Part shown: piece after piece, positions 5,488 to 56,975 of the stretch | Position numbering within the stretch: position 1 is the first letter of the stretch | Layout of the letters: every line of letters begins with the position of its first letter | Assembly (NCBI GenBank): GCA_902518895.1 | Contig: CABYHL010000001.1 | Span: forward strand, 81,038 to 145,037 | DNA: 64,000 nt | From: an uncultured Alphaproteobacteria bacterium | GTDB lineage: Bacteria; Pseudomonadota; Alphaproteobacteria; HIMB59; GCA-002718135 | Direction of reading: 5' to 3' | Made by a program: the position numbers and the translations under genes | Notes under the pieces: model-generated | What the model saw: the letters and a program-made list of their open reading frames with translations, nothing else | What the model was told of the DNA's origin: nothing | Database searches by the model: none

Positions 5488-6699
5488 ATGAATTTCAAAA
5501 AACTATCTTCATTTCTTACAATAGCTATACTTTCACTAGTTGGTTTTAAAACTTATGCTGCTGAAGTACATGGAGTATTCTGTGGCGGCGAGCTTAGACC
5601 TAATTATGTTGAAATAGCTGATAAGTACATGGAAGACAATCCTGGAGTTACTGTAACTCTAGAGGCTGTTCCTTGGGGAACATGTCAGGATAAAGTAATC
5701 AATCTTGCTATTGCAGGTGATCCCGTTGCATTTTCATATGTTGGATCAAGAACTCTAAAAGGTCTTGCAGAAAACGGACATATTTTAGAAACAAATATTC
5801 CTGCTTCACAAAAAGCAATGTATCAACCAGGTATCTTAAACACAGTTACACACATGGGTAAAACTTGGGGTTTTCCTCACGCGTTTTCAACTAAAGCACT
5901 TTTTATGAATTGTGGTCTTTTAGAAAAAGCAGGTGTTGCATGTGAAGGTCCTCAAACTTGGGATGAATTATATTCAATGGCTGAAGCTGTAACAAAAAAT
6001 GTTGATGGAGCTGCAGGAATTGGACTAGCTGGTAAAGATTTTGATAATACTATGCACCAATTCTTAAACTACCTATACAGTAATGGAGGACAAGTTATTG
6101 ATCCAATGACAAATGAAATAACTTTGAATTCATCTAATACTGTTGAAACATTAGAATTTTATGGAAAGTTAGCAAATGTTGCTCAGGAAGGTCCTTTAGC
6201 TTGGGAGAGATCTCAGTTAACAGAACTATTTAATGATGAAAAAATTGCTATGTATATTAATGGACCTTGGGGTAGAGGTCAGCATAAGGAAGGTCTAGAT
6301 GTTAAAACAGTTAGAATTCCTGCTGGACCACAAGGAAGTCAAGGTACTCTTTTAATCACTGATAGTGTTGCAGTTTTCTCAAACACAGGTGTTGAAAAAG
6401 AAGCAATGGAATTAGCTAGTATAATAACATCAGGTGACTCTCAATACAGTCTTGATACTGATTGGGGTCTAACACCAATTATGCAATATCCTCAAATTGG
6501 AAATGAAGCTCCATACAATGAAGATTATTGGATGATGTTTATTGATGCGATTGGCGATGGTGGACCAGAGCCACTATTTGTAGACTACAAAGCTTTTCAA
6601 ACTGTTATGAACTCTATGATCCAAGGTGCAATTCTTGGTGAGGGAGATGCTGCGGATTTAGTAGCAGAAGCAGCTGACGAGTTAGAAGAATACAAATAA
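5488..6699 (+). CDS. ABC sugar transporter periplasmic substrate-binding protein (family 1)
   Basis: Signal peptide MNFKKLSSFLTIAILSLVGFKTYA and family-1 SBP-like sequence. Strong TGGAGGA Shine-Dalgarno 4 nt before the ATG. Located last in the operon after a 75-nt spacer. Confidence 0.88.
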   Translation: MNFKKLSSFLTIAILSLVGFKTYAAEVHGVFCGGELRPNYVEIADKYMEDNPGVTVTLEAVPWGTCQDKVINLAIAGDPVAFSYVGSRTLKGLAENGHILETNIPASQKAMYQPGILNTVTHMGKTWGFPHAFSTKALFMNCGLLEKAGVACEGPQTWDELYSMAEAVTKNVDGAAGIGLAGKDFDNTMHQFLNYLYSNGGQVIDPMTNEITLNSSNTVETLEFYGKLANVAQEGPLAWERSQLTELFNDEKIAMYINGPWGRGQHKEGLDVKTVRIPAGPQGSQGTLLITDSVAVFSNTGVEKEAMELASIITSGDSQYSLDTDWGLTPIMQYPQIGNEAPYNEDYWMMFIDAIGDGGPEPLFVDYKAFQTVMNSMIQGAILGEGDAADLVAEAADELEEYK

Positions 6700-6711
6700 T
6701 CACATTATTTT

Positions 6712-6734
6712 GCTAGGGCAATATTTGCCCTAGC
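6712..6734 (+). terminator. Stem-loop after the SBP gene (candidate terminator/RNA stabiliser)
   Basis: GCTAGGGCA-ATATT-TGCCCTAGC, a perfect 9-bp GC-rich stem 13 nt after the stop. No clear U-tract. Confidence 0.45.
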
Positions 6735-6752
6735 ATCAAATATAAAATTCAA

Positions 6753-7481
6753 ATGAGTAAATTAACAAGATCTTATTCTTCAAAAATTAATTCAATTTTA
6801 AAGAAAATAATAAAGGAAGAAGAAAAAAAATTCTTGGAGTGTGCTAAGTTAATTAGCAAATCTTATAAAAAAGGTGGGCAGTTATATATTTTTGGAACTG
6901 GACATTCTAGATTGCTTGGAGAAGAATCATTTCACAGAGCTGGAGGTTTTGCTGCAGCTTGTCCAATAAGAGATGATGATCTCAGTTTTAAAAAAGGAGC
7001 AAGAAAAGCCACTGCTCTAGAAAGAACTCCAAATATTGCAAAAAAAGCTCTCGCTAAATATAAAATTACCAGCAAAGATGTATTAATGATTGTATCTAAT
7101 TCTGGTGTTAATCATGCGCCTGTTGAAGCAGCTTTAATTGCAAAGAAAAAAAAAATAAAAACTATTTCACTAACATCTGTTAAATTTTCTAAACAAGCTC
7201 CTCTATCTAAATTGAATAAAAGATTATTTGAAATAACGGATATATTCATTGATAACAAGATTCCACCTGGTGATGCGATTATAAATGTTAAAGATAATAT
7301 GGTTGGGCCAGCTTCAACAATTACAGGATCTTTTATTTTAAATTCAATTTTAATTGAAGTTGCAAATATCTTAAAAAATGAAAAATTGTTTCCATTCTAT
7401 ATCAGTGTAAATATGCCAAATGCTAAACAAAATAATGATATATTAGAAAAAAAATTTAGTAAGATTAATCCTCATTTATAA
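6753..7481 (+). CDS. SIS (sugar isomerase) domain-containing protein, function unknown
   Basis: Single SIS-like phosphosugar-binding domain (FGTGHSRLL, VSNSGVN motifs). Sits between the SBP gene and nagA. Confidence 0.65.
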   Translation: MSKLTRSYSSKINSILKKIIKEEEKKFLECAKLISKSYKKGGQLYIFGTGHSRLLGEESFHRAGGFAAACPIRDDDLSFKKGARKATALERTPNIAKKALAKYKITSKDVLMIVSNSGVNHAPVEAALIAKKKKIKTISLTSVKFSKQAPLSKLNKRLFEITDIFIDNKIPPGDAIINVKDNMVGPASTITGSFILNSILIEVANILKNEKLFPFYISVNMPNAKQNNDILEKKFSKINPHL

Positions 7482-7535
7482 GTTTTTAAATTTTTTTAAA
7501 TATCACGAATTTGCTATATAAGATATTAAAGTTAC

Positions 7536-8630
7536 ATGATTGATCAAAATAAAGTTAGTGGAAAAATTATTAATTATAATTCTTCCTATATTGGTGATGT
7601 ATATTTTAGTGAAAAAATTAGTGACTTAAAAATAAAGGACTCTGATGATTATAATAATATTATAATTCCTGGTTTTATTGATCTCCATTGTCATGGTGGT
7701 AATGGTTTTGATGTAATGGAGGGCTCACAATCAATTATTGAAATGTCTAAGTATCATTTACGACATGGTACCACTTCAATAATGCCAACTACTTGGACCA
7801 ATACTTTAGAAAATACTATTTCAGCGTTAAAAGGATTTAATGAAATAAAGAAAGATAATGGTAATAATATCCTTGGAGTTCATTTAGAAGGACCTTTTAT
7901 TAATCCTAATAAACTTGGTGCTCAACCAAATTTAACTGAGAAACCATCTTTAGAGTTTATAAAAAAAATTCTTGAAATTGCCGATTTAAAAATCATTACC
8001 TTAGCCCCAGAAATCGATGGAATGCAAGAATTTATAAATGATTTAGTGGAGCTAAATATTAAGATTCAATTTGGCCACACTTTGGCAGACTTTGATTGCT
8101 GTGAAAAAATTATGAAAGATCATGAAATTGGTTTTACACATCTGTATAATGCTATGTCTGGTAATGATCATAGATCCCCAGGAGTTTTATCAGCTGCTCT
8201 TTCAAAAGGAAAATATGCTGAAATAATTTGCGATAATATTCATGTTAGTAAAGAAGCAATAAAAATTGCAAAAAAATGTATTCCTGGTCTGTATGCAATA
8301 ACAGATTCTATTAACGCAAGCGGACTGAATGATGGAGAATATATTTTTGCAAATAATAATATAAAAAAAGAAAATCATTCAGTAAAAATTAAGTCTGACG
8401 ATACTTTAGCAGGAAGTATTATTACTATGGATCAAACTTTTAAAAATTTAATATCAATGAATTTTTCATTAGAAGAAGCAGTTGCTTTAACTAGTTATAA
8501 TGCTTCTAAATATTTAAATCTAGAAAATGTCGGTATAATTCAAAAAAATTTTTTAAGTAATTTTCTTATTTTAGATAAAGAATTTAATCTTAAAGAAGTT
8601 TATTTAAGAGGAAAAAAAATTAATGTCTAG
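7536..8630 (+). CDS. nagA: N-acetylglucosamine-6-phosphate deacetylase
   Basis: Amidohydrolase metal motifs GFIDLHCHGG, HLEGPFI, FTHLYNAM, ITDS. Confidence 0.88.
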   Translation: MIDQNKVSGKIINYNSSYIGDVYFSEKISDLKIKDSDDYNNIIIPGFIDLHCHGGNGFDVMEGSQSIIEMSKYHLRHGTTSIMPTTWTNTLENTISALKGFNEIKKDNGNNILGVHLEGPFINPNKLGAQPNLTEKPSLEFIKKILEIADLKIITLAPEIDGMQEFINDLVELNIKIQFGHTLADFDCCEKIMKDHEIGFTHLYNAMSGNDHRSPGVLSAALSKGKYAEIICDNIHVSKEAIKIAKKCIPGLYAITDSINASGLNDGEYIFANNNIKKENHSVKIKSDDTLAGSIITMDQTFKNLISMNFSLEEAVALTSYNASKYLNLENVGIIQKNFLSNFLILDKEFNLKEVYLRGKKINV

Positions 8631-9645
8631 TTCCCAAGTTTTATCGGAAGCACTCTCAATTCCAAATAAAATTAATCATTTTATCTTGAATGATAAAAAT
8701 AATTACCAAGAAATATCAAGTTTAATATCAGAAAAAAAAATTGATTATGTTGTTACTGTAGCAAGAGGTACTTCAGATTGTGCTGCTTTGTATTTATCTT
8801 ATATGTTTGCAAAATATCTAGGTCTACCAACATACAGCATGCCTCCATCTATAATAACTTTAGAAGAATCAAAATTTAATTTTTCGAGAGCATTAGTTTT
8901 CATTATTTCTCAATCAGGAAAAAGTGAAGATTTGGTTGAATGTCATAAAATGGTACAAAAAATGGGAGCAAAGACTATATTAATAAGTAATAACTTAAAT
9001 AGTCCCATTATAAACACATCCAATTATTTTTTTGATATAAATGCTGGAGAAGAAAAAAGTGTTGCTGCGACAAAAACCTTTGTTTTGTCTTTATTGATAA
9101 TTTTAAAGCTTGTTTTTAATACTCTTAATAAAAAAGATATTAATAAACAAATTGAAAAGTTAAGTGATCATTTAATTTTAGATAATCAAAATCAATGGAA
9201 TCCAAATATATTAGATAAAACCATAAGTAATGGATATATAATTAGTAGAGGTGTTGGATATGCAATTTCTAATGAAATATCTTTAAAGTTTAAAGAGTTA
9301 TGTCAAGAAATGATAGAACCTTTCAGTAGTGCTGAAGTAATGCATGGACCAAAAAGCTTAATTGAAAATTCATTCAAGTTATTTACTATATCGCTTAGAG
9401 ATAAAAGTGGGATGATTGTAGCAAAAGATTCTAGTCAAATTATTTCACTTACTAATCTTCACTATGATATTACTTATGATGAAAAATCGAATACAGAATT
9501 AAGATATAATACTAGTGAAATGATAGAGTTAGATCCAATTATATTACTATCAAAATTTTATCCATGGATAATTAATTATTCTTTTCAAAAGGGATTAGAC
9601 CCAGACAATCCTAGATATTTAACTAAAGTAACACAAACATTCTAA
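8623..9645 (+). CDS. SIS-type glucosamine-6-phosphate deaminase/isomerase (NagB-II/AgaS-like)
   Basis: Two SIS repeats, SQSGKSEDL motif, about 340 aa like the GlmS isomerase half. Overlaps nagA by 8 nt. Confidence 0.8.
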   Translation: MSSSQVLSEALSIPNKINHFILNDKNNYQEISSLISEKKIDYVVTVARGTSDCAALYLSYMFAKYLGLPTYSMPPSIITLEESKFNFSRALVFIISQSGKSEDLVECHKMVQKMGAKTILISNNLNSPIINTSNYFFDINAGEEKSVAATKTFVLSLLIILKLVFNTLNKKDINKQIEKLSDHLILDNQNQWNPNILDKTISNGYIISRGVGYAISNEISLKFKELCQEMIEPFSSAEVMHGPKSLIENSFKLFTISLRDKSGMIVAKDSSQIISLTNLHYDITYDEKSNTELRYNTSEMIELDPIILLSKFYPWIINYSFQKGLDPDNPRYLTKVTQTF

Positions 9646-9646
9646 T

Positions 9647-11260
9647 TTGAATAATATTGATATAGCAATTATTGGTGCAGGTTCTGCAGGAAGTATAATA
9701 GCAAATAAACTTCTGACTAAAACTAATTTTAATATAGCCCTTATTGAGGCTGGGCCTAAAGATAACAATCCTATTATTGACGTTCCTCTTGGTTATGGAA
9801 TGACATTTTATAATAAAAAAATTAATTGGAACTTCTATTCAGAAAAACAAGATAATTTATTCAATAGGCAAATATATTATCCGAGAGGTAAAGTTTTAGG
9901 TGGCTCTGGCTCAATAAATGCAATGGTCTATGCAAGAGGATTAGAAACAGATTATGAAAATTGGGGTAGCAATAAGGAATGGAGTTTTGAAAATATAAAA
10001 AAAGTATACAATTCTATGGAGCAACAAATAAATCACGATAAAGAATTTCTAACAAAAGAAAAGATTCCTGTAAATAATGTAAGTAAGCATCATCATCCAA
10101 TTTTAGAATATTTTTTTAATGCTAGTAATGAAATTGGTATTAAAAAAAATACAAATTTAACTACATCAGTCGAAAATCAAGTAGGTCATTATAATATTAA
10201 TACTTACAATGGTACTAGACATTCATCATCAAAAGTATTTTTAAAGCCTGTATTTAAAAATCCAAGACTTACAATATTAGACAATACTCAAGTTAAAAAT
10301 TTAATAATTAAAGATAAAAAAATTACTGGTGTTAAAATTAAAAATAAATCAACAGAACAAATAATACAACTATCTCATGGAGCAATTTTATGTTCTGGCT
10401 CTATAATGACGCCTTATTTGTTAATGCATTCTGGTATTGGTGACAAAGAGCACTTAAAAAAATTTGATAAAGAAATAATAATTGATAATTCTAATGTTGG
10501 AAGAAATCTTCAGGATCATCTTGGGTTAGATTATTTATTTAAAACTCATCATCATTCACTAAATAAATCGTTAGGAACTTGGCCAGGCAGAATTACTTCT
10601 GTATTAAAATATATTTATAATAGGAAAGGACCATTATCACTAAGTATTAATCAATCTGGAGGATATGTAAATTGGAATTCAAAACATCATTATCCCAACT
10701 TACAGATATATTTTAATCCGTTGACTTATTCTATCACTCATAAAAATAAAAGACCTCTTCTAAAAACTGATAAATTTAATGGTTTTATTATTGGTTATAA
10801 TTCTTGTCGACCAAAAAGTTTGGGTAGAGTTGAATTGAACTCTCCTAATTTTGATGATGTTCCATTGATTGATCCAAATTTTCTATCACATGAAGAAGAT
10901 ATATATGATGTGAAATGCGCAATTAATTTTTCTCAAGTTTTGGCGAATACAAATAGTATAAAAAAAATAAGAAATGAAAGTGTTACACATGATCTTTTAA
11001 ATGCTACTGAAGAAGAAATGATTGATCACTTTAAATCTAATGCAGTTTCTATATATCACCCTTGTGGTACTTGTAAAATGGATGAAGATCCTAAAAAAGG
11101 AGTTGTTTCTGAAAGATTAAAAGTTCATGGAATGGAGAATCTTTGGATTGCTGATGCATCTGTTTTTCCAAATATTACTTCTGGCAATATAAATGCCCCT
11201 GTAATGATGCTTGCTAATCTTGGAAGTAAATTTATTATTGAGGATTTAAATAAGATTTAA
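9647..11260 (+). CDS. GMC family FAD-dependent oxidoreductase (choline/sugar dehydrogenase-like), TTG start
   Basis: FAD fingerprint IIGAGSAGSIIANKL, GMC signature GGSGSINAMVYARG, C-terminal HPCGTCKM and ADASVFP. Confidence 0.85.
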   Translation: MNNIDIAIIGAGSAGSIIANKLLTKTNFNIALIEAGPKDNNPIIDVPLGYGMTFYNKKINWNFYSEKQDNLFNRQIYYPRGKVLGGSGSINAMVYARGLETDYENWGSNKEWSFENIKKVYNSMEQQINHDKEFLTKEKIPVNNVSKHHHPILEYFFNASNEIGIKKNTNLTTSVENQVGHYNINTYNGTRHSSSKVFLKPVFKNPRLTILDNTQVKNLIIKDKKITGVKIKNKSTEQIIQLSHGAILCSGSIMTPYLLMHSGIGDKEHLKKFDKEIIIDNSNVGRNLQDHLGLDYLFKTHHHSLNKSLGTWPGRITSVLKYIYNRKGPLSLSINQSGGYVNWNSKHHYPNLQIYFNPLTYSITHKNKRPLLKTDKFNGFIIGYNSCRPKSLGRVELNSPNFDDVPLIDPNFLSHEEDIYDVKCAINFSQVLANTNSIKKIRNESVTHDLLNATEEEMIDHFKSNAVSIYHPCGTCKMDEDPKKGVVSERLKVHGMENLWIADASVFPNITSGNINAPVMMLANLGSKFIIEDLNKI

Positions 11261-47250: not shown

Positions 47251-47571
47251 ATGAATAAATTTTATTTAATCGGAAAATTAAGTCCAGAGTACGTTAAAGG
47301 TTATATGAGTAATCCAGATCAAGATAGAGCTGCGATTGTTGGAAGTGCTGCTGAAAAAGCTGGAGGTAAATTACATAGTTTAGAATTTGTAAGAGGTGAC
47401 TTTGACATGATTGCTACAGCAGAAGGTGATTATGAATCAATGCTTGCCATGAAGGTTACAGCTTTACAATCAGGAATGTTAAATGAATTAATCATTCTAG
47501 ATACAAAATTTGATATGGTTAGTACTGTAAAAAAAGCAGTAGAGGCCTCTGGAACTTATAAAAAAACTTAA
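47251..47571 (+). CDS. GYD domain-containing protein
   Basis: About 100 aa, pattern K.....NP.DR......A.EKAGGKL......RGDFD characteristic of the GYD family. AAGGAG Shine-Dalgarno upstream. Confidence 0.65.
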   Translation: MNKFYLIGKLSPEYVKGYMSNPDQDRAAIVGSAAEKAGGKLHSLEFVRGDFDMIATAEGDYESMLAMKVTALQSGMLNELIILDTKFDMVSTVKKAVEASGTYKKT

Positions 47572-48723: not shown

Positions 48724-49893
48724 ATGAATTCAAAAATATTAAGTGAAAAAATTCAAAATATTTTTGAAAAATATAAAATTCCATCATTATCTGTTATTAT
48801 TACAAATAAAGATCAGAATTTATATGAAAACTATTTAGGTTTTAAAAACTCTAAAAATAAAACTCCTTTTGATGAATTATCAATTGTTAGAATTGCATCT
48901 ATGACGAAGCCTATTACATCGCTATGTATTTTCCAATTAATTGAGCAGAATTTAATTAGTTTAGAAACAAATTTACAAGACATTGATAAGCGATTTTCTG
49001 ATGTAAAAATCATCAAAAAAACAGATAACAAAATTAATTACATAAAACCTAAATCAAATATAAAAATTAAGCACTTATTAAATCATACCTCAGGTTATGG
49101 ATACCAGTTCTTAAATCCTGAAATTAAATACTTAGTTGATAATAAATTATTACAAGATTTAAAAGATGATGGTGCGGATTTTCTAGATGCTCCAATTTTA
49201 TTTGAACCGGGAGAAAGATGGAATTACGGTATTGGAATAGACATATTAGGTTATATAATTGAAAAAATTTCGAACAAAAAATTAAACGAATATATGAAAG
49301 AAAATTTATTCAATAAACTAGGTATGAATAACACCACTTTTCATTTAGATAATACAAAATTTAAAGATCTTGCATATGTATATAATTACACTCAAGATCA
49401 AATTAAAATTGATCAAGAAAGAGCTGATGAGCAAGAAAATAAAATTAATAAAACCTTTCATGCTGGTGGTGGAGGATTACTGTCAACAACTCAAGATTAT
49501 GCTAAATTTATGAGATTATTTCTAAAAGAACACAATGAAATTATTTCTCAAGAATCAATAAACTTGATGAAAAGAAATCAAATAGGATCACTAGAAGTTA
49601 AAAGAATGCCTTCAGTCGATGCTGAGTTATCCGCTTCCTTAGACTATGATGATAATATTGAAAAGAAATTTGGTTATGGTTTTATGATTAATAATCAAAA
49701 AACAAATGAAGGTCGTCCAAAAGGTAGTATATTTTGGACAGGAATTTTTAATAGTTTTTTTTGGATTGATTTTGAAAATAAAATTGGATGTGCAATATTC
49801 ATGCAAATGCTCCCTTACTTAAATGAGATTTCCCTCAAAACCTATAATGAAATAGAAACAGCTATTTATCAAAATATTGACACAAAAAAATAA
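48724..49893 (+). CDS. Serine hydrolase of the beta-lactamase/esterase (class C-like) family
   Basis: SMTKP (SxxK nucleophile motif), downstream YGYQ/YGIG region, HAGGG segment. Confidence 0.75.
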   Translation: MNSKILSEKIQNIFEKYKIPSLSVIITNKDQNLYENYLGFKNSKNKTPFDELSIVRIASMTKPITSLCIFQLIEQNLISLETNLQDIDKRFSDVKIIKKTDNKINYIKPKSNIKIKHLLNHTSGYGYQFLNPEIKYLVDNKLLQDLKDDGADFLDAPILFEPGERWNYGIGIDILGYIIEKISNKKLNEYMKENLFNKLGMNNTTFHLDNTKFKDLAYVYNYTQDQIKIDQERADEQENKINKTFHAGGGGLLSTTQDYAKFMRLFLKEHNEIISQESINLMKRNQIGSLEVKRMPSVDAELSASLDYDDNIEKKFGYGFMINNQKTNEGRPKGSIFWTGIFNSFFWIDFENKIGCAIFMQMLPYLNEISLKTYNEIETAIYQNIDTKK

Positions 49894-50285: not shown

Positions 50286-50360
50286 TGGTGCCACAGGGCA
50301 GAATCGAACTGCCGGCTTACTCATTACCAATGAGTTACTCTACCCCTGAGTTACTGCGGC
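50286..50360 (-). tRNA. tRNA-Thr: tRNA-Thr (anticodon GGT), CCA encoded
   Basis: Reverse complement folds as a cloverleaf: acceptor GCCGCAG/CTGTGGC, D arm ACTC/GAGT, anticodon stem ACTCA/TGAGT with loop TTGGTAA, T arm GGCAG-TTCGATT-CTGCC, 3' ACCA. 75 nt. Confidence 0.92.
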
Positions 50361-50511: not shown

Positions 50512-51684
50512 ATGGATGATATGAAAGTTTACAATCGAGCTTTTATTTCAACTTGTATCGCCATTTCTATTCCTTTTTTTGTGTGGGGTAATACTATTTC
50601 GCATTTGCCTTGGATAGCTAGTAAAATTAATATGAGTCACTCAACTATTGGCTACTTTTTTATGATTTTTGCTATTATTAATTTATTAACATCTCAAGTT
50701 GTTGGAAGATACATTGCTCCAGTTATAGGTTCAAGAAATACACTAACCATAGGCGCGATAATATTTTCACCTTCACCATATTTCTTTGGTTTTTCAAATT
50801 CAGTACCATTTTTTTTACTATCTGCAATCCCATGTGGAATAGGAATTGGATTCCTGTGGTCAACTGCTACAGCCGTTACAAATCTAATAGAAGATAAGAC
50901 TAATAGAATTTTGCAAACTTATTTAAGCGCTTTTTTCAGTTTAGGTTTTCTATTTGGGGGTTTATGTTCTGGAATCATTCAAAGGTATCAATTTGATACG
51001 TATAATTTGTTTTCTCTCTTAATAATAATTGCGATTATTTCACCAATTTTTGTTTTTTATTTAGGTTTATCGAAAAGTAAGGATAATATCCAGAAAACTG
51101 AAAAATTTTCTATCCCTGAAAAAGATATTTTAATTTATGGATTATATCTATTCATTTTTTTTGGATCAATAGGTGCAATTTCTGATTGGTCTCCATTATG
51201 GTTTAAAAATGAACTGCTAACATCCAGCACTCTTGCAAGTTTAACAATAGTTGCATGGGGATCAGGTGAGACTATTGGTAAATTTCTTGGATCTTCTTTA
51301 ATAAAAAAAACTAATGAAAGAATAATTGGTGGTTATCTAAGTTTTTTTGGATGTTCAATTTATTTAATTATTGTATTTTTTGGTGATCCTTACTTAATTT
51401 TAATTGGGCTCTTTTTAATTGGTTTTTGTTCAGCAAATTTTGTTCCAGTCTTATTTAGACTTGGCCTTAAGAATACTAAAGAAAATGTTAACACTACTTC
51501 TGCTAACATATCTACAATAGGTTTCTTTGGTTTTTTAGTAGTTCCAGCTTTAATTGGCTACTCTGCTGAAATTAACAGCATTGGATTTAATGTAAAACTG
51601 ATAAGTGTAGTTTGGTTAGTTAATTTTATATTTTTTTTATACACTACAAGAGTTAATTTATCACAAGCGATTAAAAATACTTAG
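50512..51684 (+). CDS. MFS-type transporter
   Basis: About 12 hydrophobic spans and a motif-A-like VGRYIAPVIGSRN between the second and third spans. Confidence 0.65.
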   Translation: MDDMKVYNRAFISTCIAISIPFFVWGNTISHLPWIASKINMSHSTIGYFFMIFAIINLLTSQVVGRYIAPVIGSRNTLTIGAIIFSPSPYFFGFSNSVPFFLLSAIPCGIGIGFLWSTATAVTNLIEDKTNRILQTYLSAFFSLGFLFGGLCSGIIQRYQFDTYNLFSLLIIIAIISPIFVFYLGLSKSKDNIQKTEKFSIPEKDILIYGLYLFIFFGSIGAISDWSPLWFKNELLTSSTLASLTIVAWGSGETIGKFLGSSLIKKTNERIIGGYLSFFGCSIYLIIVFFGDPYLILIGLFLIGFCSANFVPVLFRLGLKNTKENVNTTSANISTIGFFGFLVVPALIGYSAEINSIGFNVKLISVVWLVNFIFFLYTTRVNLSQAIKNT

Positions 51685-51752: not shown

Positions 51753-51777
51753 GTTAGCAGATATTAAATCTGCTAAC
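51753..51777. terminator. Bidirectional hairpin between convergent genes
   Basis: GTTAGCAGAT-ATTAA-ATCTGCTAAC, a perfect 10-bp stem. Confidence 0.55.
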
Positions 51778-51784
51778 AATATTG

Positions 51785-52102
51785 TTAAATAATAGTTTCT
51801 GTTTTAGCTCCTGCAATTATTGAAGGTCCATCAATTACACCATGTTCTTTAGTAGTAAAGTTATCAAAGTTTTCATGAGTGGATAAAAATTCAAATATTG
51901 GACCATTTTTATATTTTTCCAGACTATCTTCATCTTTAAAAATATAAACACCTCCATAAACATTTTCATTTTCATCACCGATAAAGTACTTAGATATTAA
52001 ACCTTCTACTCCACGGAAATCCATAGCATCAATATGCGCTTGAGCCTTGAAATCATCAACACCCAAGTTTTTAAGATTAAAATTAATAATTAAAATTTTC
52101 AT
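51785..52102 (-). CDS. YdhR-like small ferredoxin-like-fold (dimeric alpha/beta barrel) protein
   Basis: ILIINFNLKNLGVDDFKAQ...GLISKYFIGDENENVYGGVYIFKDEDSLEKY parallels E. coli YdhR LLQLHFAFNGPFGD...[31 protein letters not shown]. ATG 52102 forms an ATGA overlap with the upstream stop. Confidence 0.6.
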   Translation of the reverse strand: MKILIINFNLKNLGVDDFKAQAHIDAMDFRGVEGLISKYFIGDENENVYGGVYIFKDEDSLEKYKNGPIFEFLSTHENFDNFTTKEHGVIDGPSIIAGAKTETII

Positions 52103-52716
52103 TCTTTCCATCCATTTTCAGCTAAAACTCTTCTAAGATTAAATCCATCCCAAATTGTTGAGCTTAGCATTTCCTGGTGATTGTCCCAAACTTTATCTCC
52201 ATTTAACTTATCTGATGCTTTTCCATAATCGGCCATGTTATTAAATCTAGCACCAAAGCCGTATTGACCAAAATCAGCACCGCTTAAAGTACCAACAGTG
52301 CATCCTGTTGATCCATTATCCATCCAATATTTAAAAAAAGCTTCTGATTCTTTTAAAACCAATTCTCTATTTGGATGAGAAAATTTCCAGATAGCAAAGC
52401 AGCTTTTAACACCATTGAATGTCATTTCATGCAATAAAGGTTCATAGAAATTCATTCTAACATGTTCACTCATTCCAAAATAAGCTTCCATCTCCGAACC
52501 AAATTCACTATCTGTACTCCAACTATCATCCATTTCACCAAAGTGTTGATAATTATTATATCCAATATCAATATTATATACTGATGTATCTGCACCTTGA
52601 TGTGTAGCTATTGAAGTTCCTATAGCGCCGTATTTTTCTGCATACTTTGAAACAATTTTGTAGCCTGACATTGCTCTGTCATTACTAATTTTATATTGCC
52701 AACTTCCTATAATCAT
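52099..52716 (-). CDS. Uncharacterised protein with internal two-fold repeat (paralogue A, 205 aa)
   Basis: The two halves share the pattern W.(Y/F)...G(A/S).G...GAD...(Y/F)NN(Y/M)..(F/Y)G...D. AAGGAGGT Shine-Dalgarno 4 nt before the ATG. Paralogous to 52731..53345. Confidence 0.6.
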   Translation of the reverse strand: MIIGSWQYKISNDRAMSGYKIVSKYAEKYGAIGTSIATHQGADTSVYNIDIGYNNYQHFGEMDDSWSTDSEFGSEMEAYFGMSEHVRMNFYEPLLHEMTFNGVKSCFAIWKFSHPNRELVLKESEAFFKYWMDNGSTGCTVGTLSGADFGQYGFGARFNNMADYGKASDKLNGDKVWDNHQEMLSSTIWDGFNLRRVLAENGWKE

Positions 52717-52730
52717 TTTTACCTCCTTTT

Positions 52731-53345
52731 TTAATAAATATTTCTTCTAATTACTCTGGCATTATAATTAAGATGAATATTTAAGTTTGCATAATAATCT
52801 TTGTGACTTGCCCAATAATCTGGAGAATTTTGGTTAGCATCCATGCACTTACCTAACTCTTGCATACTTTTAAATCTTGCAGCAAATAAATATTGATTAT
52901 TTCTATCACCAAACATTCTATGAATTGCAATTCCTGATGAACCATTTGACATGTAGTGTTTTTCATCAATTTCAAAACTTTTTTTTATAGCATCCACATC
53001 TGGATGACTAAAAACAAAATGTGCCCATACAGGCATTTCCTCAGTAGCACCTTTAATATTTCCAATCAATTCAGTTAAATAAACAGCTTCAACTAATTGA
53101 TTGTTTACAAAATTTGGTTGCATTTTTTGCCACCATTCTGGAGATGAAGCCCAAGCATCATCATTTTTTCCAAATGCTTCATAACTCTCAAATCCTGCTA
53201 CCATAGTGAATGTATTATCATCACCACCAATATTATGCGTTACATTAGTCATTCGAGCTCCACTTTCTTTAAACCAAGGTGAAACTTTATCAAAAATATC
53301 TACAGCATTTGCGTAGTCAGTTCTTATTTTCCAGGTTGCATACAT
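52731..53345 (-). CDS. Uncharacterised protein with internal two-fold repeat (paralogue B, 204 aa)
   Basis: Shares FSHP(D/N), NGS(S/T)G, ARF(K/N)(S/N)M and FG..DD(A/S)W with paralogue A. ATG 53345, preceded by AAGGAGGT, is preferred to the track's 53369. Confidence 0.6.
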   Translation of the reverse strand: MYATWKIRTDYANAVDIFDKVSPWFKESGARMTNVTHNIGGDDNTFTMVAGFESYEAFGKNDDAWASSPEWWQKMQPNFVNNQLVEAVYLTELIGNIKGATEEMPVWAHFVFSHPDVDAIKKSFEIDEKHYMSNGSSGIAIHRMFGDRNNQYLFAARFKSMQELGKCMDANQNSPDYWASHKDYYANLNIHLNYNARVIRRNIY

Positions 53346-53542
53346 ATTTACCTCCTTTGTTGATTGCAATAAGATGGTTATTATGAATTTATTACATAGA
53401 GATTAAAAATATTTTTATTTAATAATATTTTTAATGTATTTTTTTCCAAGAAAGTTCTAAAAAATAGAGAATTATTATGATTTTGTTATAAATTAAATTT
53501 AGAATGATTATAAAATAATATTTAATTTAAATTATATTTTAT

Positions 53543-54394
53543 ATGGATGTGAATAAAATTACACTAGGATACTGGAGTACAAAAGGACTTGGCTCTGCAT
53601 CAAGACAAATGATTATTTATGCCGGTGTTCCTCTAATAGCAAAAATTTATAAAGTACTTCCTAAAGAAGAAAATAATCAGATTATATATGAGGGAAGTTC
53701 ATGGCATGATAATGATAAAATTGATTTAAAGAAAAAAAATAGTTTAATTAATTTACCATACTTAAAATATTTTAAGGATGATAAAGAATTCATAATATCT
53801 CATTCCAATACCTGTCTAACTTTTTTGGGTAAAGAATTTGGTATGTTTGGTGAGACGCAAGAGGAAGAGATAGAGTGTGAGCAGTTACTGCAAGAAACTG
53901 TAGATTTAAGATCAATTGTAACAAGATTTGCTTACACTCATTTTAATTCTAAAGATGAAGAATTATTAGCAGCTAAAGAAGTTTACAATATAGCATTTGA
54001 AAATTCTAACTCTGGTAAACTTCAGAAATTCGAACACTGGCTCTCCTCAAAAGATAAAAGCAAAACTAAATTATTTTTAGTAGGTAATAAAATTTCTTCT
54101 CCAGACTTTAACCTTTTTGACACTTTAGATCTTTATTGTGAGTTTTTACTTTATTATAATTTTGTGGAAAATGCAGATAATAATAATGTTTTTGCTTTGC
54201 TGGAATATCCTCTGATTTCAGATTTTTTTAATAACTTTAAGCAACTTCCCAAAATGCAAAAATATTTTGAATCTGAATTATACAAACTTCCATTTACAAA
54301 TAAAGGAGCTAAATTTGGATCAGGTAAAAGTGGTATTACGTGGAACCCAAGTATTGATACTGATACAACACCGGATGAAATAATTGTTGAATAA
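53543..54394 (+). CDS. Glutathione S-transferase, Mu-class-like, enlarged (283 aa)
   Basis: TLGYWSTKGLGSASRQMIIY vs mammalian mu ILGYWDIRGLAHAIRLLLEY. INLPYL...FGETQEEEIECE vs FPNLPYL...CGETEEEKIRVD. FLVGNKISSPDFNLFDTLDL vs WFAGNKITFVDFLVYDVLDL. Confidence 0.7.
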   Translation: MDVNKITLGYWSTKGLGSASRQMIIYAGVPLIAKIYKVLPKEENNQIIYEGSSWHDNDKIDLKKKNSLINLPYLKYFKDDKEFIISHSNTCLTFLGKEFGMFGETQEEEIECEQLLQETVDLRSIVTRFAYTHFNSKDEELLAAKEVYNIAFENSNSGKLQKFEHWLSSKDKSKTKLFLVGNKISSPDFNLFDTLDLYCEFLLYYNFVENADNNNVFALLEYPLISDFFNNFKQLPKMQKYFESELYKLPFTNKGAKFGSGKSGITWNPSIDTDTTPDEIIVE

Positions 54395-54420
54395 ATATAT
54401 AATATTTATAAAGTAATTTT

Positions 54421-55026
54421 ATGGAAGAAGTAAATTTTTGGTTTTCAATAGGAAGTACTTATACTTATTTAACAGTCAATAGGTTGCATGAGGTCGCAGA
54501 AAAAGAAAACATTAAATTTAATTGGCATCCTTTTAGTGTAAGAAAAATTATGATGGATATGGACAACATTCCATTCACGCCACCAGCCAAAAAAATAAAA
54601 TCAGATTACATGTGGAGAGATATTGAAAGACGAGCAAAATTTTACGGTTTTGAAGCTAAGGTACCAGCACCATATCCATTAAAAGAATTTGATTTAGCAA
54701 ATCAAATTGCAATTCTTGGAATGAATGAAGGGTGGGGAGTTGATTATGTTTATAAAACATATCAAAGATGGTTTCAGCAAGGAAAAGAACCAGCTACACA
54801 GCCAAACTTAAACGAAATATTTAAAGAGCTAAACTTAGATCCAGAAGAAACTATAAAGAAAGCTAATGAGAAGGAAATAAAGGATAAATATCTAAGCAAT
54901 ACTGAATATGCCTACAAAAAAGGAGTTTTTGGGAGTCCTTCCTTTATATATCAAGGTAAGGAAGTATTTTGGGGAGATGATAGACTTGAAGATTGTATTA
55001 AATGGATTAGGTTACAAGGTAAGTAA
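54421..55026 (+). CDS. DsbA-like 2-hydroxychromene-2-carboxylate isomerase family protein (GST kappa homologue)
   Basis: VNFWFSIGSTYTYL N-terminus and C-terminal GVFGSPSFIYQGKEVFWGDDRLE, typical of the HCCA isomerase/kappa-GST family. Confidence 0.72.
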   Translation: MEEVNFWFSIGSTYTYLTVNRLHEVAEKENIKFNWHPFSVRKIMMDMDNIPFTPPAKKIKSDYMWRDIERRAKFYGFEAKVPAPYPLKEFDLANQIAILGMNEGWGVDYVYKTYQRWFQQGKEPATQPNLNEIFKELNLDPEETIKKANEKEIKDKYLSNTEYAYKKGVFGSPSFIYQGKEVFWGDDRLEDCIKWIRLQGK

Positions 55027-55032
55027 ATTAAT

Positions 55033-55149
55033 ATGAAGTTTCTAAATTTTATTTTTCCAAAAGGTCAATGGTCATTAACTAGAGTGGCAATACTATTTAT
55101 AATATTTATGATCCTTGATTTTATTGTTGTTTATTACAAAATTATATAA
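55033..55149 (+). CDS. Candidate 38-aa single-span membrane micro-protein
   Basis: ATG ORF below the track's length cut-off: MKFLNFIFPKGQWSLTRVAILFIIFMILDFIVVYYKII. Fills an otherwise empty 134-nt spacer. No clear Shine-Dalgarno. Confidence 0.25.
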   Translation: MKFLNFIFPKGQWSLTRVAILFIIFMILDFIVVYYKII

Positions 55150-55160
55150 GACTTAAATTA

Positions 55161-56975
55161 GTGGCTAGTGATTTATTATTTTCTCTAAGAGATGTAGAAA
55201 TCAAATTTGGCAAAAAAGTTATTTTCCAAGATCTAAACTTAAATTTACACAAGGGCGATATGATTGCGCTTGTTGGCAAAAATGGTGTTGGCAAAACAAC
55301 ACTTATGAAAACTATAAATGGTGATCAAGATTTAGATGCAGGAGAATTATGGAATTATCCAAATCTAAAAGTTGGATATTTTAATCAGAAATTTGAAAAA
55401 CTAGATAACAAAACCATTGAAGAGAATTTTTCAGACTTACTTAATGAACAAAATAAACATTTTGTTGATATATTTTGCAACAAACTCAATTTAGACAAAT
55501 TTGCTCATGTTGAAGATCTTTCAGGAGGGCAAAAAAGAAAAGTTTATTTAATTCGATCTTTATTAAAAGACTCTGATGTTTTGTTATTAGATGAGCCAAC
55601 CAATCATTTAGATTTGCAATGCATCGAATGGCTAGAAAGTTATTTACGCAATTTAAATAAGACAATTATATGTGTTAGCCATGATCGAACTTTTCTCAGT
55701 AATTTTACCAATAAAGTATTTTGGATAGATAGGGGAAAATTACGAGTAAGTCCTAGTGGATTTAAAAATTTTGATAAATGGTCAGAGGAGTTACTCGATC
55801 AAGAATATAGAGAATTAAGAAATAGAAAACAATTTGTCAACATTGAACTTGAGTGGGCAAATAAAGGAGTAAAGGCGCGAGTTAAGCGAAATGAAAAAAG
55901 ATTAAAAAGAGCGAAAGAATTAAAAGCGCAATTAGAAAAAGATGAAGCTTCTTATAGAAGTGCAATTAAATCTTTAAGACCTCAAGTTTCTAAAAAATCT
56001 ACTGATCAATCTAAATTTATTGCTGAGCTCCAAGAAGTATTCGTAAAATATCCTAATCAAAGTGAATTTGTTTTTAAAAATCTATCCATAAAAATTTCAA
56101 AAAATGATCGTATTGGTCTTTTAGGTAATAATGGGAGTGGTAAATCAACTTTTCTTCGTACAATTCTTAATGAAATAAAAATTTCTAAAGGTAAAATTAA
56201 GTTGAAAAAAAATTTAGAATTTTCTTATTTTGATCAAATGCGTAATGATCTTAATGGTAGAAAATCTATTAAAGATATTTTAGTTCCCTCTGGAGGAGAC
56301 TATTTAAAGGTTCAAGGAAGAGACAGGCATGTCTGTAGCTATGTGAAAGATTTTCAGTTTGATCCTAAAAATGTTAACCATACGATACAAACATTATCGG
56401 GAGGAGAGCAAAACAGGCTACTTTTAGCAAAAGTATTAGCTAATCCCAAAACTGGACTTATATTAGATGAGCCAACAAATGATCTAGATTTAGAGACGCT
56501 AGATCTTTTAACTGAGATGTTATCAAATTATAATGGAACATTACTAATTGTATCGCATGACCGAGATTTTTTAGATCAAACTGTAAATAAGATTTTACAT
56601 TTTAAAGAGGATGGAAATGTATCATTGTTTTTTGGTGGATACAGTGATTTTTTGAAATCTGAAAATCAACAAGTAGCTAAAAATAAAGAAACTAAAAAAT
56701 CACTTACAGAAAACAATAAAGTAAAGAATTCAAAATCTAAATTATCATATAAGTTTCAATATGAATTAGAACAACTTCCAAGCCAAATAAAAAATATTCA
56801 ACAAGAATTAGAAGATATTAAAAATGAATTGAAGGATACAAATTTATATTTAGAAAATTTTGAACGATATCAAGAAATAACTTCCAAAATGGAAGTTCTG
56901 AATAGTGACCTTAATACAAAAGAGAATAGATGGTTTGAATTAATTAAAATGGAAGAAGATTTAGTTAGTAATTGA
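55161..56975 (+). CDS. ABC-F family ATPase (Uup-like, no membrane domain), GTG start
   Basis: Two NBDs (GKNGVGKTT / LSGGQKRKV; GNNGSGKST / LSGGEQNRL), charged linker and C-terminal coiled-coil-like tail. Confidence 0.88.
   Translation: MASDLLFSLRDVEIKFGKKVIFQDLNLNLHKGDMIALVGKNGVGKTTLMKTINGDQDLDAGELWNYPNLKVGYFNQKFEKLDNKTIEENFSDLLNEQNKHFVDIFCNKLNLDKFAHVEDLSGGQKRKVYLIRSLLKDSDVLLLDEPTNHLDLQCIEWLESYLRNLNKTIICVSHDRTFLSNFTNKVFWIDRGKLRVSPSGFKNFDKWSEELLDQEYRELRNRKQFVNIELEWANKGVKARVKRNEKRLKRAKELKAQLEKDEASYRSAIKSLRPQVSKKSTDQSKFIAELQEVFVKYPNQSEFVFKNLSIKISKNDRIGLLGNNGSGKSTFLRTILNEIKISKGKIKLKKNLEFSYFDQMRNDLNGRKSIKDILVPSGGDYLKVQGRDRHVCSYVKDFQFDPKNVNHTIQTLSGGEQNRLLLAKVLANPKTGLILDEPTNDLDLETLDLLTEMLSNYNGTLLIVSHDRDFLDQTVNKILHFKEDGNVSLFFGGYSDFLKSENQQVAKNKETKKSLTENNKVKNSKSKLSYKFQYELEQLPSQIKNIQQELEDIKNELKDTNLYLENFERYQEITSKMEVLNSDLNTKENRWFELIKMEEDLVSN

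Follow-up and report, generated by a model that had tools for sequence, protein, structure and literature searches.

Paired tandem alpha+beta barrel paralogs and a YdhR-family gene in a strain-variable slot of SAR11 genomes

A 64-kb stretch of DNA from a Pelagibacteraceae (SAR11) genome (G+C content, 29.8%), referred to here as the window, carries three minus-strand genes, designated A, B, and C, that form one operon. Gene A (positions 52731-53345) encodes a protein of 204 amino acids (aa), and gene B (52099-52716) encodes its paralog of 205 aa. Both products are predicted to be tandem alpha+beta barrels, that is, fused dimers; A is a divergent representative of the DUF6854/2PGC family and defines the subtype called A1 below, and B defines subtype B1. 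Gene C (51785-52102) encodes a 105-aa single-domain alpha+beta barrel of the YdhR family (PF08803) and is translationally coupled to B. An initial annotation, made from the sequence alone, had proposed three tightly coupled genes at this site, and the open reading frames (ORFs) indeed span exactly 51785-53345 of the minus strand. The gap between A and B measures 14 nt, and B and C overlap by an ATGA, as had also been proposed; in the sequence, the B stop codon overlaps the C start codon at bases 52099-52102. Comparison with close orthologs gave ratios of nonsynonymous to synonymous substitution rates (dN/dS) of 0.04 to 0.19 over the three genes (A, 0.05 to 0.19; B, 0.04 to 0.08; C, 0.05 to 0.11). 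They are thus real genes under selective constraint, all three being under purifying selection.

The Shine-Dalgarno (SD) site of A, AAGGAGGT, lies at 53350-53357 (minus strand), 5 nt before the ATG, and the same site of B is located at 52721-52728 (minus strand), inside the 14-nt spacer; the sequence AAAGGAGGTAAA(T/A)ATG precedes both genes. In the whole window, AAGGAGGT occurs twice, namely, as the SD sites of A and B, and nowhere else. Among the 63 ORFs of at least 100 aa, A and B alone match the complement of the anti-SD sequence over 8 nt, the next best match measuring 6 nt, which bears out the earlier claim that these ribosome sites are among the strongest in the window. AGGAGG-type ribosome sites were found upstream of nearly all members of the family. 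The next-strongest class of site (AAGGAG) belongs to a 106-aa ORF on the plus strand (47251-47571), whose counterpart in a related locus (L001) has a Pfam GYD domain. A conserved leader or promoter slot 5' of the first barrel gene (53346-53435, minus strand) was delimited by alignment across loci. A scan for promoter hexamers revealed no excess over the shuffled expectation, and no riboswitch was detected in the leader by an Rfam search of the window, which returned a tRNA only. At the other end of the operon, a hairpin with a 10-bp stem (51753-51777, strand unassigned) is located 8 nt past the stop codon of C, between the convergent C and major facilitator superfamily (MFS) transporter genes. 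It is a probable terminator; a scan for terminator-like structures found 3 against 0.5 expected, and the U-tract of this hairpin is weak on the minus strand.

The initial annotation had described A and B as paralogs, each composed of two repeats of about 100 aa. The proteins share 27% identity over 183 residues (BLASTP, E = 5e-23), and the motifs FSHP(D/N), NGS(S/T)G, ARF(K/N)(S/N)M, and FG..DD(A/S)W that had been listed as common to them were all recovered in the alignments. The repeat structure also holds, as the N-terminal and C-terminal halves match each other with E values of 4e-7 in A and 2e-7 in B. However, the long motif present in both halves, which had been assigned to B, sits in the upstream 204-aa protein A, where H36NIGGDDN...FESYEAFGKNDDAWASSPEWW pairs with H142RMFGDRN...FKSMQELGKCMDANQNSPDYW. 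The halves of the two paralogs also match crosswise in register (N-terminal halves, E = 1e-12; C-terminal halves, E = 4e-15), and the internal duplication is therefore older than the split between A and B.

AlphaFold2 models of A and B were built from shallow alignments of 10 to 13 sequences and reached predicted local distance difference test (pLDDT) values of 88.9 and 90.7 and predicted template modeling (pTM) scores of 0.84 and 0.85, respectively. Both models show the order beta-alpha-beta-beta-alpha-alpha-beta twice per chain. In a Foldseek search of the Protein Data Bank (PDB) with these predicted models, entry 2PGC ranked first for A (template modeling [TM] score, 0.77; E = 2e-10; root mean square deviation [rmsd], 3.3 over 206 columns) as well as for B (TM score, 0.79 to 0.82; E = 4e-13; rmsd, 2.6 to 2.9). 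The lower ranks comprised 5F9P, 3F44, 3MCS, sulfur oxygenase reductases (SORs), PenE, HmoB, HemQ, and DyP, and all top structural neighbors of A and B share the dimeric alpha+beta barrel fold. The models thus agree with the pseudo-dimeric ferredoxin-like fold put forward in the initial annotation, two halves being visible in each chain. We conclude that A and B are, as modeled, fused-dimer alpha+beta barrels in which the two ferredoxin-like halves of a chain would form one barrel; single-domain relatives build the same barrel as homodimers.

At the sequence level, gene A passes the gathering cutoff of the Pfam family DUF6854 (PF21614) with 28.9 bits against 27, in two stretches, whereas B remains below it with 12.3 bits; the other subtypes score 20 to 28 bits or give no match. 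The 2PGC sequence is a core member of DUF6854 (123 bits, E = 4.9e-36). A profile built from A- and B-type sequences matched 2PGC chain A from residue 19 to 190 (profile positions 8 to 179) with an E value of 0.0076, which is marginal and leans on the structural agreement. Single-sequence phmmer searches of A and B against the PDB sequences gave no match, nor did NCBIfam return any useful match for either protein. The top structural match, the profile match, the membership of 2PGC in DUF6854, and the score of A together place A and B in this family, of which they are divergent members (13 to 16% identity to 2PGC, which typifies it). They are consequently not orphans; the earlier statement that no characterized function can be assigned still holds, the nearest family being structurally solved and functionally unknown. 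The suggested likeness to NIPSNAP was not upheld, as A scores 14.2 bits (E = 0.052) against the cutoff of 22.3 for NIPSNAP (PF07978) and B does not match; the Pfam threshold of Dabb was not reached either. Full-text literature searches with DUF6854, 2PGC, and related terms retrieved no paper.

The resemblance of C to YdhR, likewise noted at the outset, was confirmed by a match to Pfam ydhR (PF08803) of 45.9 bits (cutoff, 27.1; E = 5.8e-12) that aligns residues 3 to 98 of 105 with profile positions 1 to 94 of 96. C is not the equivalog of Escherichia coli YdhR, reaching 28.2 bits in the corresponding NCBIfam model (NF008333/PRK11118) against a cutoff of 103, and phmmer comparison with the YdhR structures 2HIQ and 1WD6 yielded E values of 1.3 to 1.6. 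The 105-aa form is the predominant member of its sequence cluster. Where C follows B1 or A3, another tandem-barrel subtype, it is coupled to it by an ATGA (A3-C in L016, L038, and L039); 3' of subtype B2, it has the same MKIL start, located 13 nt after B2, and an AAGAGGT site of its own. No functional study was found in the YdhR literature.

When 1.84 billion cluster representatives were searched exhaustively with a HMMER profile, 49 proteins were retrieved at an E value of 1e-3 or below, many of them fragments. Scanning one genome per GTDB species identified 25 loci, all in single-cell or metagenome-assembled genomes labeled uncultured Alphaproteobacteria or Pelagibacteraceae, one homolog carrying the NCBI name "Pelagibacteraceae bacterium." Word-indexed homolog searches returned SAR11 relatives only, and the clusters to which the exact proteins belong have 518, 300, and 117 members; these come from marine metagenomes, Tara among them, and are annotated as hypothetical throughout. 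No relatives were found in IMG/VR or GenBank phages. Distant members outside SAR11 are mostly on contigs too short to provide context; on one soil contig, the homolog P0072 lies beside sulfatase, PhyH, SDR, FMO-like, and TetR genes, a case too isolated to use.

A set of 33 related loci, designated by L numbers, was compared with the window, and 24 genome loci were informative for architecture. About seven subtypes of tandem-barrel gene can be told apart: A2 is 75% identical to A1, and A3 (208 to 209 aa) is 37% identical to it; B2 is 52% and B3, with forms a and b, is 46 to 51% identical to B1; and B4 is an additional B-type subtype. Each strain carries one to three paralogs, with or without C, and at least 10 different contents were observed. 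The arrangement of the window, A1-B1-C, recurs in L010 and L091, whereas L020 has A2-B1-C and seven loci (L001-L003 and L005-L008) have A2-B2-C. A is missing from seven genome loci with B2-C and from two with B1-C. C is missing from four loci with A1-B3 and from three in which A1-B1 is followed by an ATP-binding cassette (ABC) transporter. The remaining arrangements are A1-A3-C-B3b (three loci), A1-A3 (one locus), and B3 or B4 alone (two loci). C was present in 14 of the 24 informative loci, where the gene directly preceding it was always one of the tandem barrels, namely, B1, B2, or A3. The trio postulated in the initial annotation therefore does recur in other genomes, but as one of many combinations and not as an obligate unit. 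In L016, L018, and L019 (around 5857-6000), the frame of A is open upstream, giving ORFs of 224 to 252 aa; since the SD site and the ATG are conserved at their canonical position, the extra length is probably an artefact, arising because no in-frame stop is present.

The variable genes have constant surroundings. The last 85 to 90 nt or so 5' of the first paralog are conserved, whether A1, A2, B1, B2, or B3 leads, and this leader lies within a 197-bp AT-rich spacer shared with a divergently transcribed gene encoding a glutathione S-transferase (GST)-like protein. This plus-strand gene (53543-54394, 283 aa) matches Pfam GST_C only, with no NCBIfam match, and the N terminus of its product (ITLGYWSTKGLG...) presumably resembles that of mu-class GSTs. 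It is followed by a gene for a DsbA-like thioredoxin-fold protein (54421-55026, plus strand; Pfam), which is not a canonical GST. Of the neighborhood initially described, an MFS gene on one side and two GST-type genes on the other, the MFS gene and the GST_C gene were thus recovered and the second GST was not. Of the 22 genome loci covering this side, 21 have both the GST-like and the DsbA-like gene next to the cassette, the exception being L033, which lacks the GST-like gene. The far boundary of the variable segment is a tRNA-Thr(GGT) gene (50286-50360, minus strand; ARAGORN and Rfam). No other RNA gene was found in the window, and the same tRNA gene bounds the segment in each of the 15 related loci that were scanned; this flank, consisting of tRNA-Thr and a DUF4174 gene, is conserved. 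The variable genes lie 5' of the tRNA gene, whereas integrative islands usually lie 3'. Within this small flexible island, bounded by the GST-like gene and tRNA-Thr(GGT), the operon has a fixed expression slot.

Further modules of the island vary as well. The MFS transporter gene (50512-51684, plus strand; Pfam MFS_1, E = 6e-30) is replaced elsewhere by a 35%-identical MFS gene in the opposite orientation or by an ABC transporter, or is absent; being swappable, it is an independent module. An ABC-type module was observed in seven loci (L009, L011, L013, L015, L021, L022, and L031) and comprises a 446-aa solute-binding protein and two permeases (L013, 7528-11362), no ATPase gene being seen beside it; in L009, L013, and L022 it directly follows A1-B1, with C and the MFS gene absent. 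L033 is rearranged (5992-10211), with a lone B4-type gene beyond the DsbA-like gene, on its other side. Before its tRNA gene, this locus has a gene for a 339-aa membrane protein with the histidine boxes HELIHR, EHVYGHH, and HSEHH, which resembles alkane hydroxylases and desaturases. A metagenome scaffold (L092, 1-2982) corresponds to window positions 54399-56615, with an identical DsbA-like protein and an ABC-F gene. Its synteny ends at window position 54399, where a pseudouridine synthase gene that does not occur in the window replaces the GST-like gene and the cassette; the break may reflect either a genuine rearrangement or a chimeric assembly. Beyond the tRNA gene, a plus-strand gene (48724-49893) encodes a serine hydrolase of the "beta-lactamase" fold that scores 255 bits against the NCBIfam model of the methyl acetate hydrolase AcmB (cutoff, 550). 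It is present, absent, or 46 to 76% identical among the related loci, which indicates that the variable zone reaches past the tRNA gene.

The association between tandem barrels and YdhR-type proteins was also observed in a second branch of the family. We inspected 48 metagenome loci with canonical 2PGC-type genes (L040-L087), most of which have a G+C content of about 30%, with three at 54 to 60%; the window contains no canonical 2PGC-type gene. Their commonest neighbor is a PF08803 protein of 101 to 106 aa, encoded on the same strand about 0.2 to 2 kb away in 11 of the 48 loci and 27 to 33% identical to C. Several long canonical contigs have no YdhR-type gene, and the linkage is thus frequent but not obligate. 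Between or beside the two genes, tautomerase (PF01361), NTF2/SnoaL-like, and DUF6974 genes are often found; the canonical neighborhoods also include DsrE-like genes and a gene for a 132-aa protein resembling a further barrel (cluster 4). That DUF6854 and YdhR genes adjoin each other in both branches, whose identity is only about 15%, is the strongest indication available that these two types of protein work together.

Taken together, these data led us to propose, with a probability of roughly 45%, that A, B, and C are abundant cytoplasmic cofactor-free proteins acting on small molecules, most likely as enzymes of the oxygenase, isomerase, or tautomerase type. They would be present in high copy number in the cytoplasm, need no cofactor, and use small-molecule substrates. 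A and B might function like barrels of the ABM/ActVA-Orf6 type, with a substrate pocket located, in one half, between sheet and helices; an adjacent step would fall to the YdhR-type protein, and the swapping of paralogs between strains could tune which compounds are handled. This proposal draws on the structural neighbors that follow 2PGC, which are annotated as anthrone-oxidase-like proteins or putative monooxygenases (5F9P, 3F44, 3MCS, and PenE), and on the canonical loci, which are crowded with small cofactor-free enzyme folds (PF01361, SnoaL/NTF2-like, and DUF6974). ActVA-Orf6 is a cofactor-independent oxygenase barrel of the ABM type.

Several observations weigh against an enzymatic role. 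We know of no member of the DUF6854 or YdhR family with demonstrated activity, and the proposal therefore rests on fold analogy and gene neighborhood. Neither A, B, nor C matched PF03992 (ABM) at E values up to 1. In the wider family, invariance is limited to glycines, one Phe, and one Asp, with one Trp nearly so, and most SAR11 subtypes keep the pair S113-H114, which A3 and the outgroups have lost; from these alignments, the wider family does not appear to conserve a clear catalytic constellation. The strong ribosome sites suit a stoichiometric binding or stress protein equally well. The surrounding genes provide little help, since the GST-like and DsbA-like genes are a constant border of the island and hence not demonstrable pathway partners, and the transporter modules assort independently of the paralog type. 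The idea that the flanking genes hint at a shared small-molecule pathway, contained in the initial annotation, is for these reasons weak evidence, and we downgraded a functional link of the cassette to them.

The alternative that fares best is that the barrels have no catalytic role and instead act in ligand binding, buffering, or stress by sequestering or chaperoning some small molecule, either hydrophobic or reactive; we regard this as possible but somewhat unlikely. A role of this kind has been proposed for stress-responsive barrels of the Dabb and NIPSNAP types. The exceptional strength and the conservation of the ribosome sites, suggestive of a high copy number, are in line with it, as are the weak NIPSNAP similarity, the lack of conserved catalytic-type residues in the wider family, and the one to three gene copies, which are compatible with variation in dosage or specificity. 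However, the Pfam thresholds of Dabb and NIPSNAP are not reached, the nearest annotated structural neighbors are oxygenase-like, and the recurrent pairing with YdhR together with the enzyme-rich canonical neighborhoods fits a short pathway better.

It is improbable that A, B, and C are subunits of a single obligate hetero-oligomer whose stoichiometry is enforced by the tight coupling of the genes. The 14-nt spacer, the ATGA of B and C, and the matched ribosome sites of A and B speak for such a complex, and the five chains in the 2PGC crystal entry hint at higher-order assembly in the family, but the architectures mix and match. Among the 24 informative loci, 9 have a B-type gene and C without A, 7 have A and B without C, 1 has only A1 and A3, and 2 have a single B-type gene. 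Nor is there a fixed set of partners, A1 being paired with B1, B3, or A3 and A2 with B1 or B2. An obligate complex of all three proteins was therefore rejected.

Haem- or metal-dependent enzymes built on the same barrel, such as the IsdG/HmoB haem oxygenases, HemQ/chlorite-dismutase-like proteins, or SOR, are a very improbable explanation. Foldseek did match A and B to SOR (query-normalized TM score [TMq], 0.66 to 0.75) and, with lower scores, to HmoB, HemQ, and DyP, but at 7 to 12% identity, with a target-normalized TM score of about 0.5 in the case of SOR and with no Pfam match to any of these families. The SOR site consists of conserved cysteines and a mononuclear iron ligated by two His and one carboxylate. 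Our alignments, in which SOR residues were not mapped one by one, contain no invariant Cys and no family-wide His, so that neither this site nor a proximal haem His has a conserved counterpart, and SOR-like, IsdG-like, and HemQ-like functions were rejected on these grounds. Least probable of all is that the cassette is mobile-element cargo or an anti-phage defense island, a notion that the strain-variable position beside a tRNA gene might invite but that was rejected since PADLOC gave only noise-level matches (12 to 16 bits), IMG/VR and GenBank phages hold no relatives, the loci showed neither an integrase nor a repeat, the variable segment lies 5' of the tRNA gene, and SAR11 islands lack canonical mobile elements (PMC11796062).

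Returning to the proposal of small-molecule enzymes, an extension of it that we consider speculative and rather unlikely is that DUF6854 barrels and their YdhR partners might constitute an unrecognized, highly expressed two-protein cofactor-free enzyme system, whose swapped paralogs (A1 to A3 and B1 to B4) would partition a class of dissolved organic compounds (photoproducts of a quinone-like or aromatic kind, for instance) among SAR11 lineages that coexist. SAR11 genomes are streamlined, and genes that are kept, duplicated, and furnished with the strongest ribosome sites of a 64-kb stretch are therefore likely to matter to the cell. The analysis provides several handles on them, namely, the tie of both paralogs to the solved structure 2PGC, the recurrent linkage of barrel and YdhR genes, and about seven subtypes shuffled in one slot. 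The cassette is thus a clean target for function assignment in the most abundant bacteria of the ocean, with little in it to surprise a specialist; its substrate, if found, would be a small addition to our understanding of how coexisting SAR11 strains divide dissolved organic matter.

Among known systems, the genomic setting is closest to the flexible islands of SAR11 described by Molina-Pardines et al. (2025; PMC11796062), which are small, occupy equivalent positions, contain diverged paralogs, are in some cases linked to tRNA genes, and have no canonical mobile elements. The segment analyzed here is likewise small, bounded by conserved flanks, and tRNA linked, with diverged gene versions and transporters and without mobile-element genes. 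The difference is in the content: the worked examples in that study are transporters (Amt, TRAP/TTT, and EamA), and its main text does not mention barrel, glutathione, or MFS terms.

Of the protein families compared, SOR (2CB2 and relatives) shares with A and B the tandem ferredoxin-like core, which superposes with the TMq values given above, but has about 308 aa and extra elements compared with 204 to 205 aa; the SAR11 context and the sequences offer no support for SOR function. The ABM-type tandem barrels (the anthrone-oxidase-like 5F9P, the putative monooxygenases 3F44 and 3MCS, and PenE, 9KDP) have the same superfold and fused-dimer layout and are the next structural matches after 2PGC (TMq, 0.51 to 0.73). 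They differ by the absence of a PF03992 match in A and B and by an identity of 10 to 14%. E. coli YdhR (PF08803; 2HIQ and 1WD6), annotated as a "putative monooxygenase," resembles C in its length of about 100 aa and in its Pfam family, although C is not its equivalog. To our knowledge, YdhR has no demonstrated activity, and we take its monooxygenase label to derive from structural similarity.

The closest counterpart of A and B is 2PGC itself, a marine-metagenome protein (jcvi_pep_1096685590403) solved by the Joint Center for Structural Genomics (JCSG), which has about 205 aa, forms a tandem barrel of two ferredoxin-like domains, and has no known function. Both proteins have it as their best structural match, with TM scores of 0.77 to 0.82 overall, and genes of its type occur in low-GC marine bacteria, where a YdhR-type gene often follows, as in the operon described here. 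Unlike these canonical genes, of which one was detected per locus examined, the branch represented by the window has one to three adjacent paralogs, and B and several other subtypes fall below the Pfam gathering score. A and B thus represent a new branch, divergent and restricted to SAR11, within a known domain family rather than a new kind of system.

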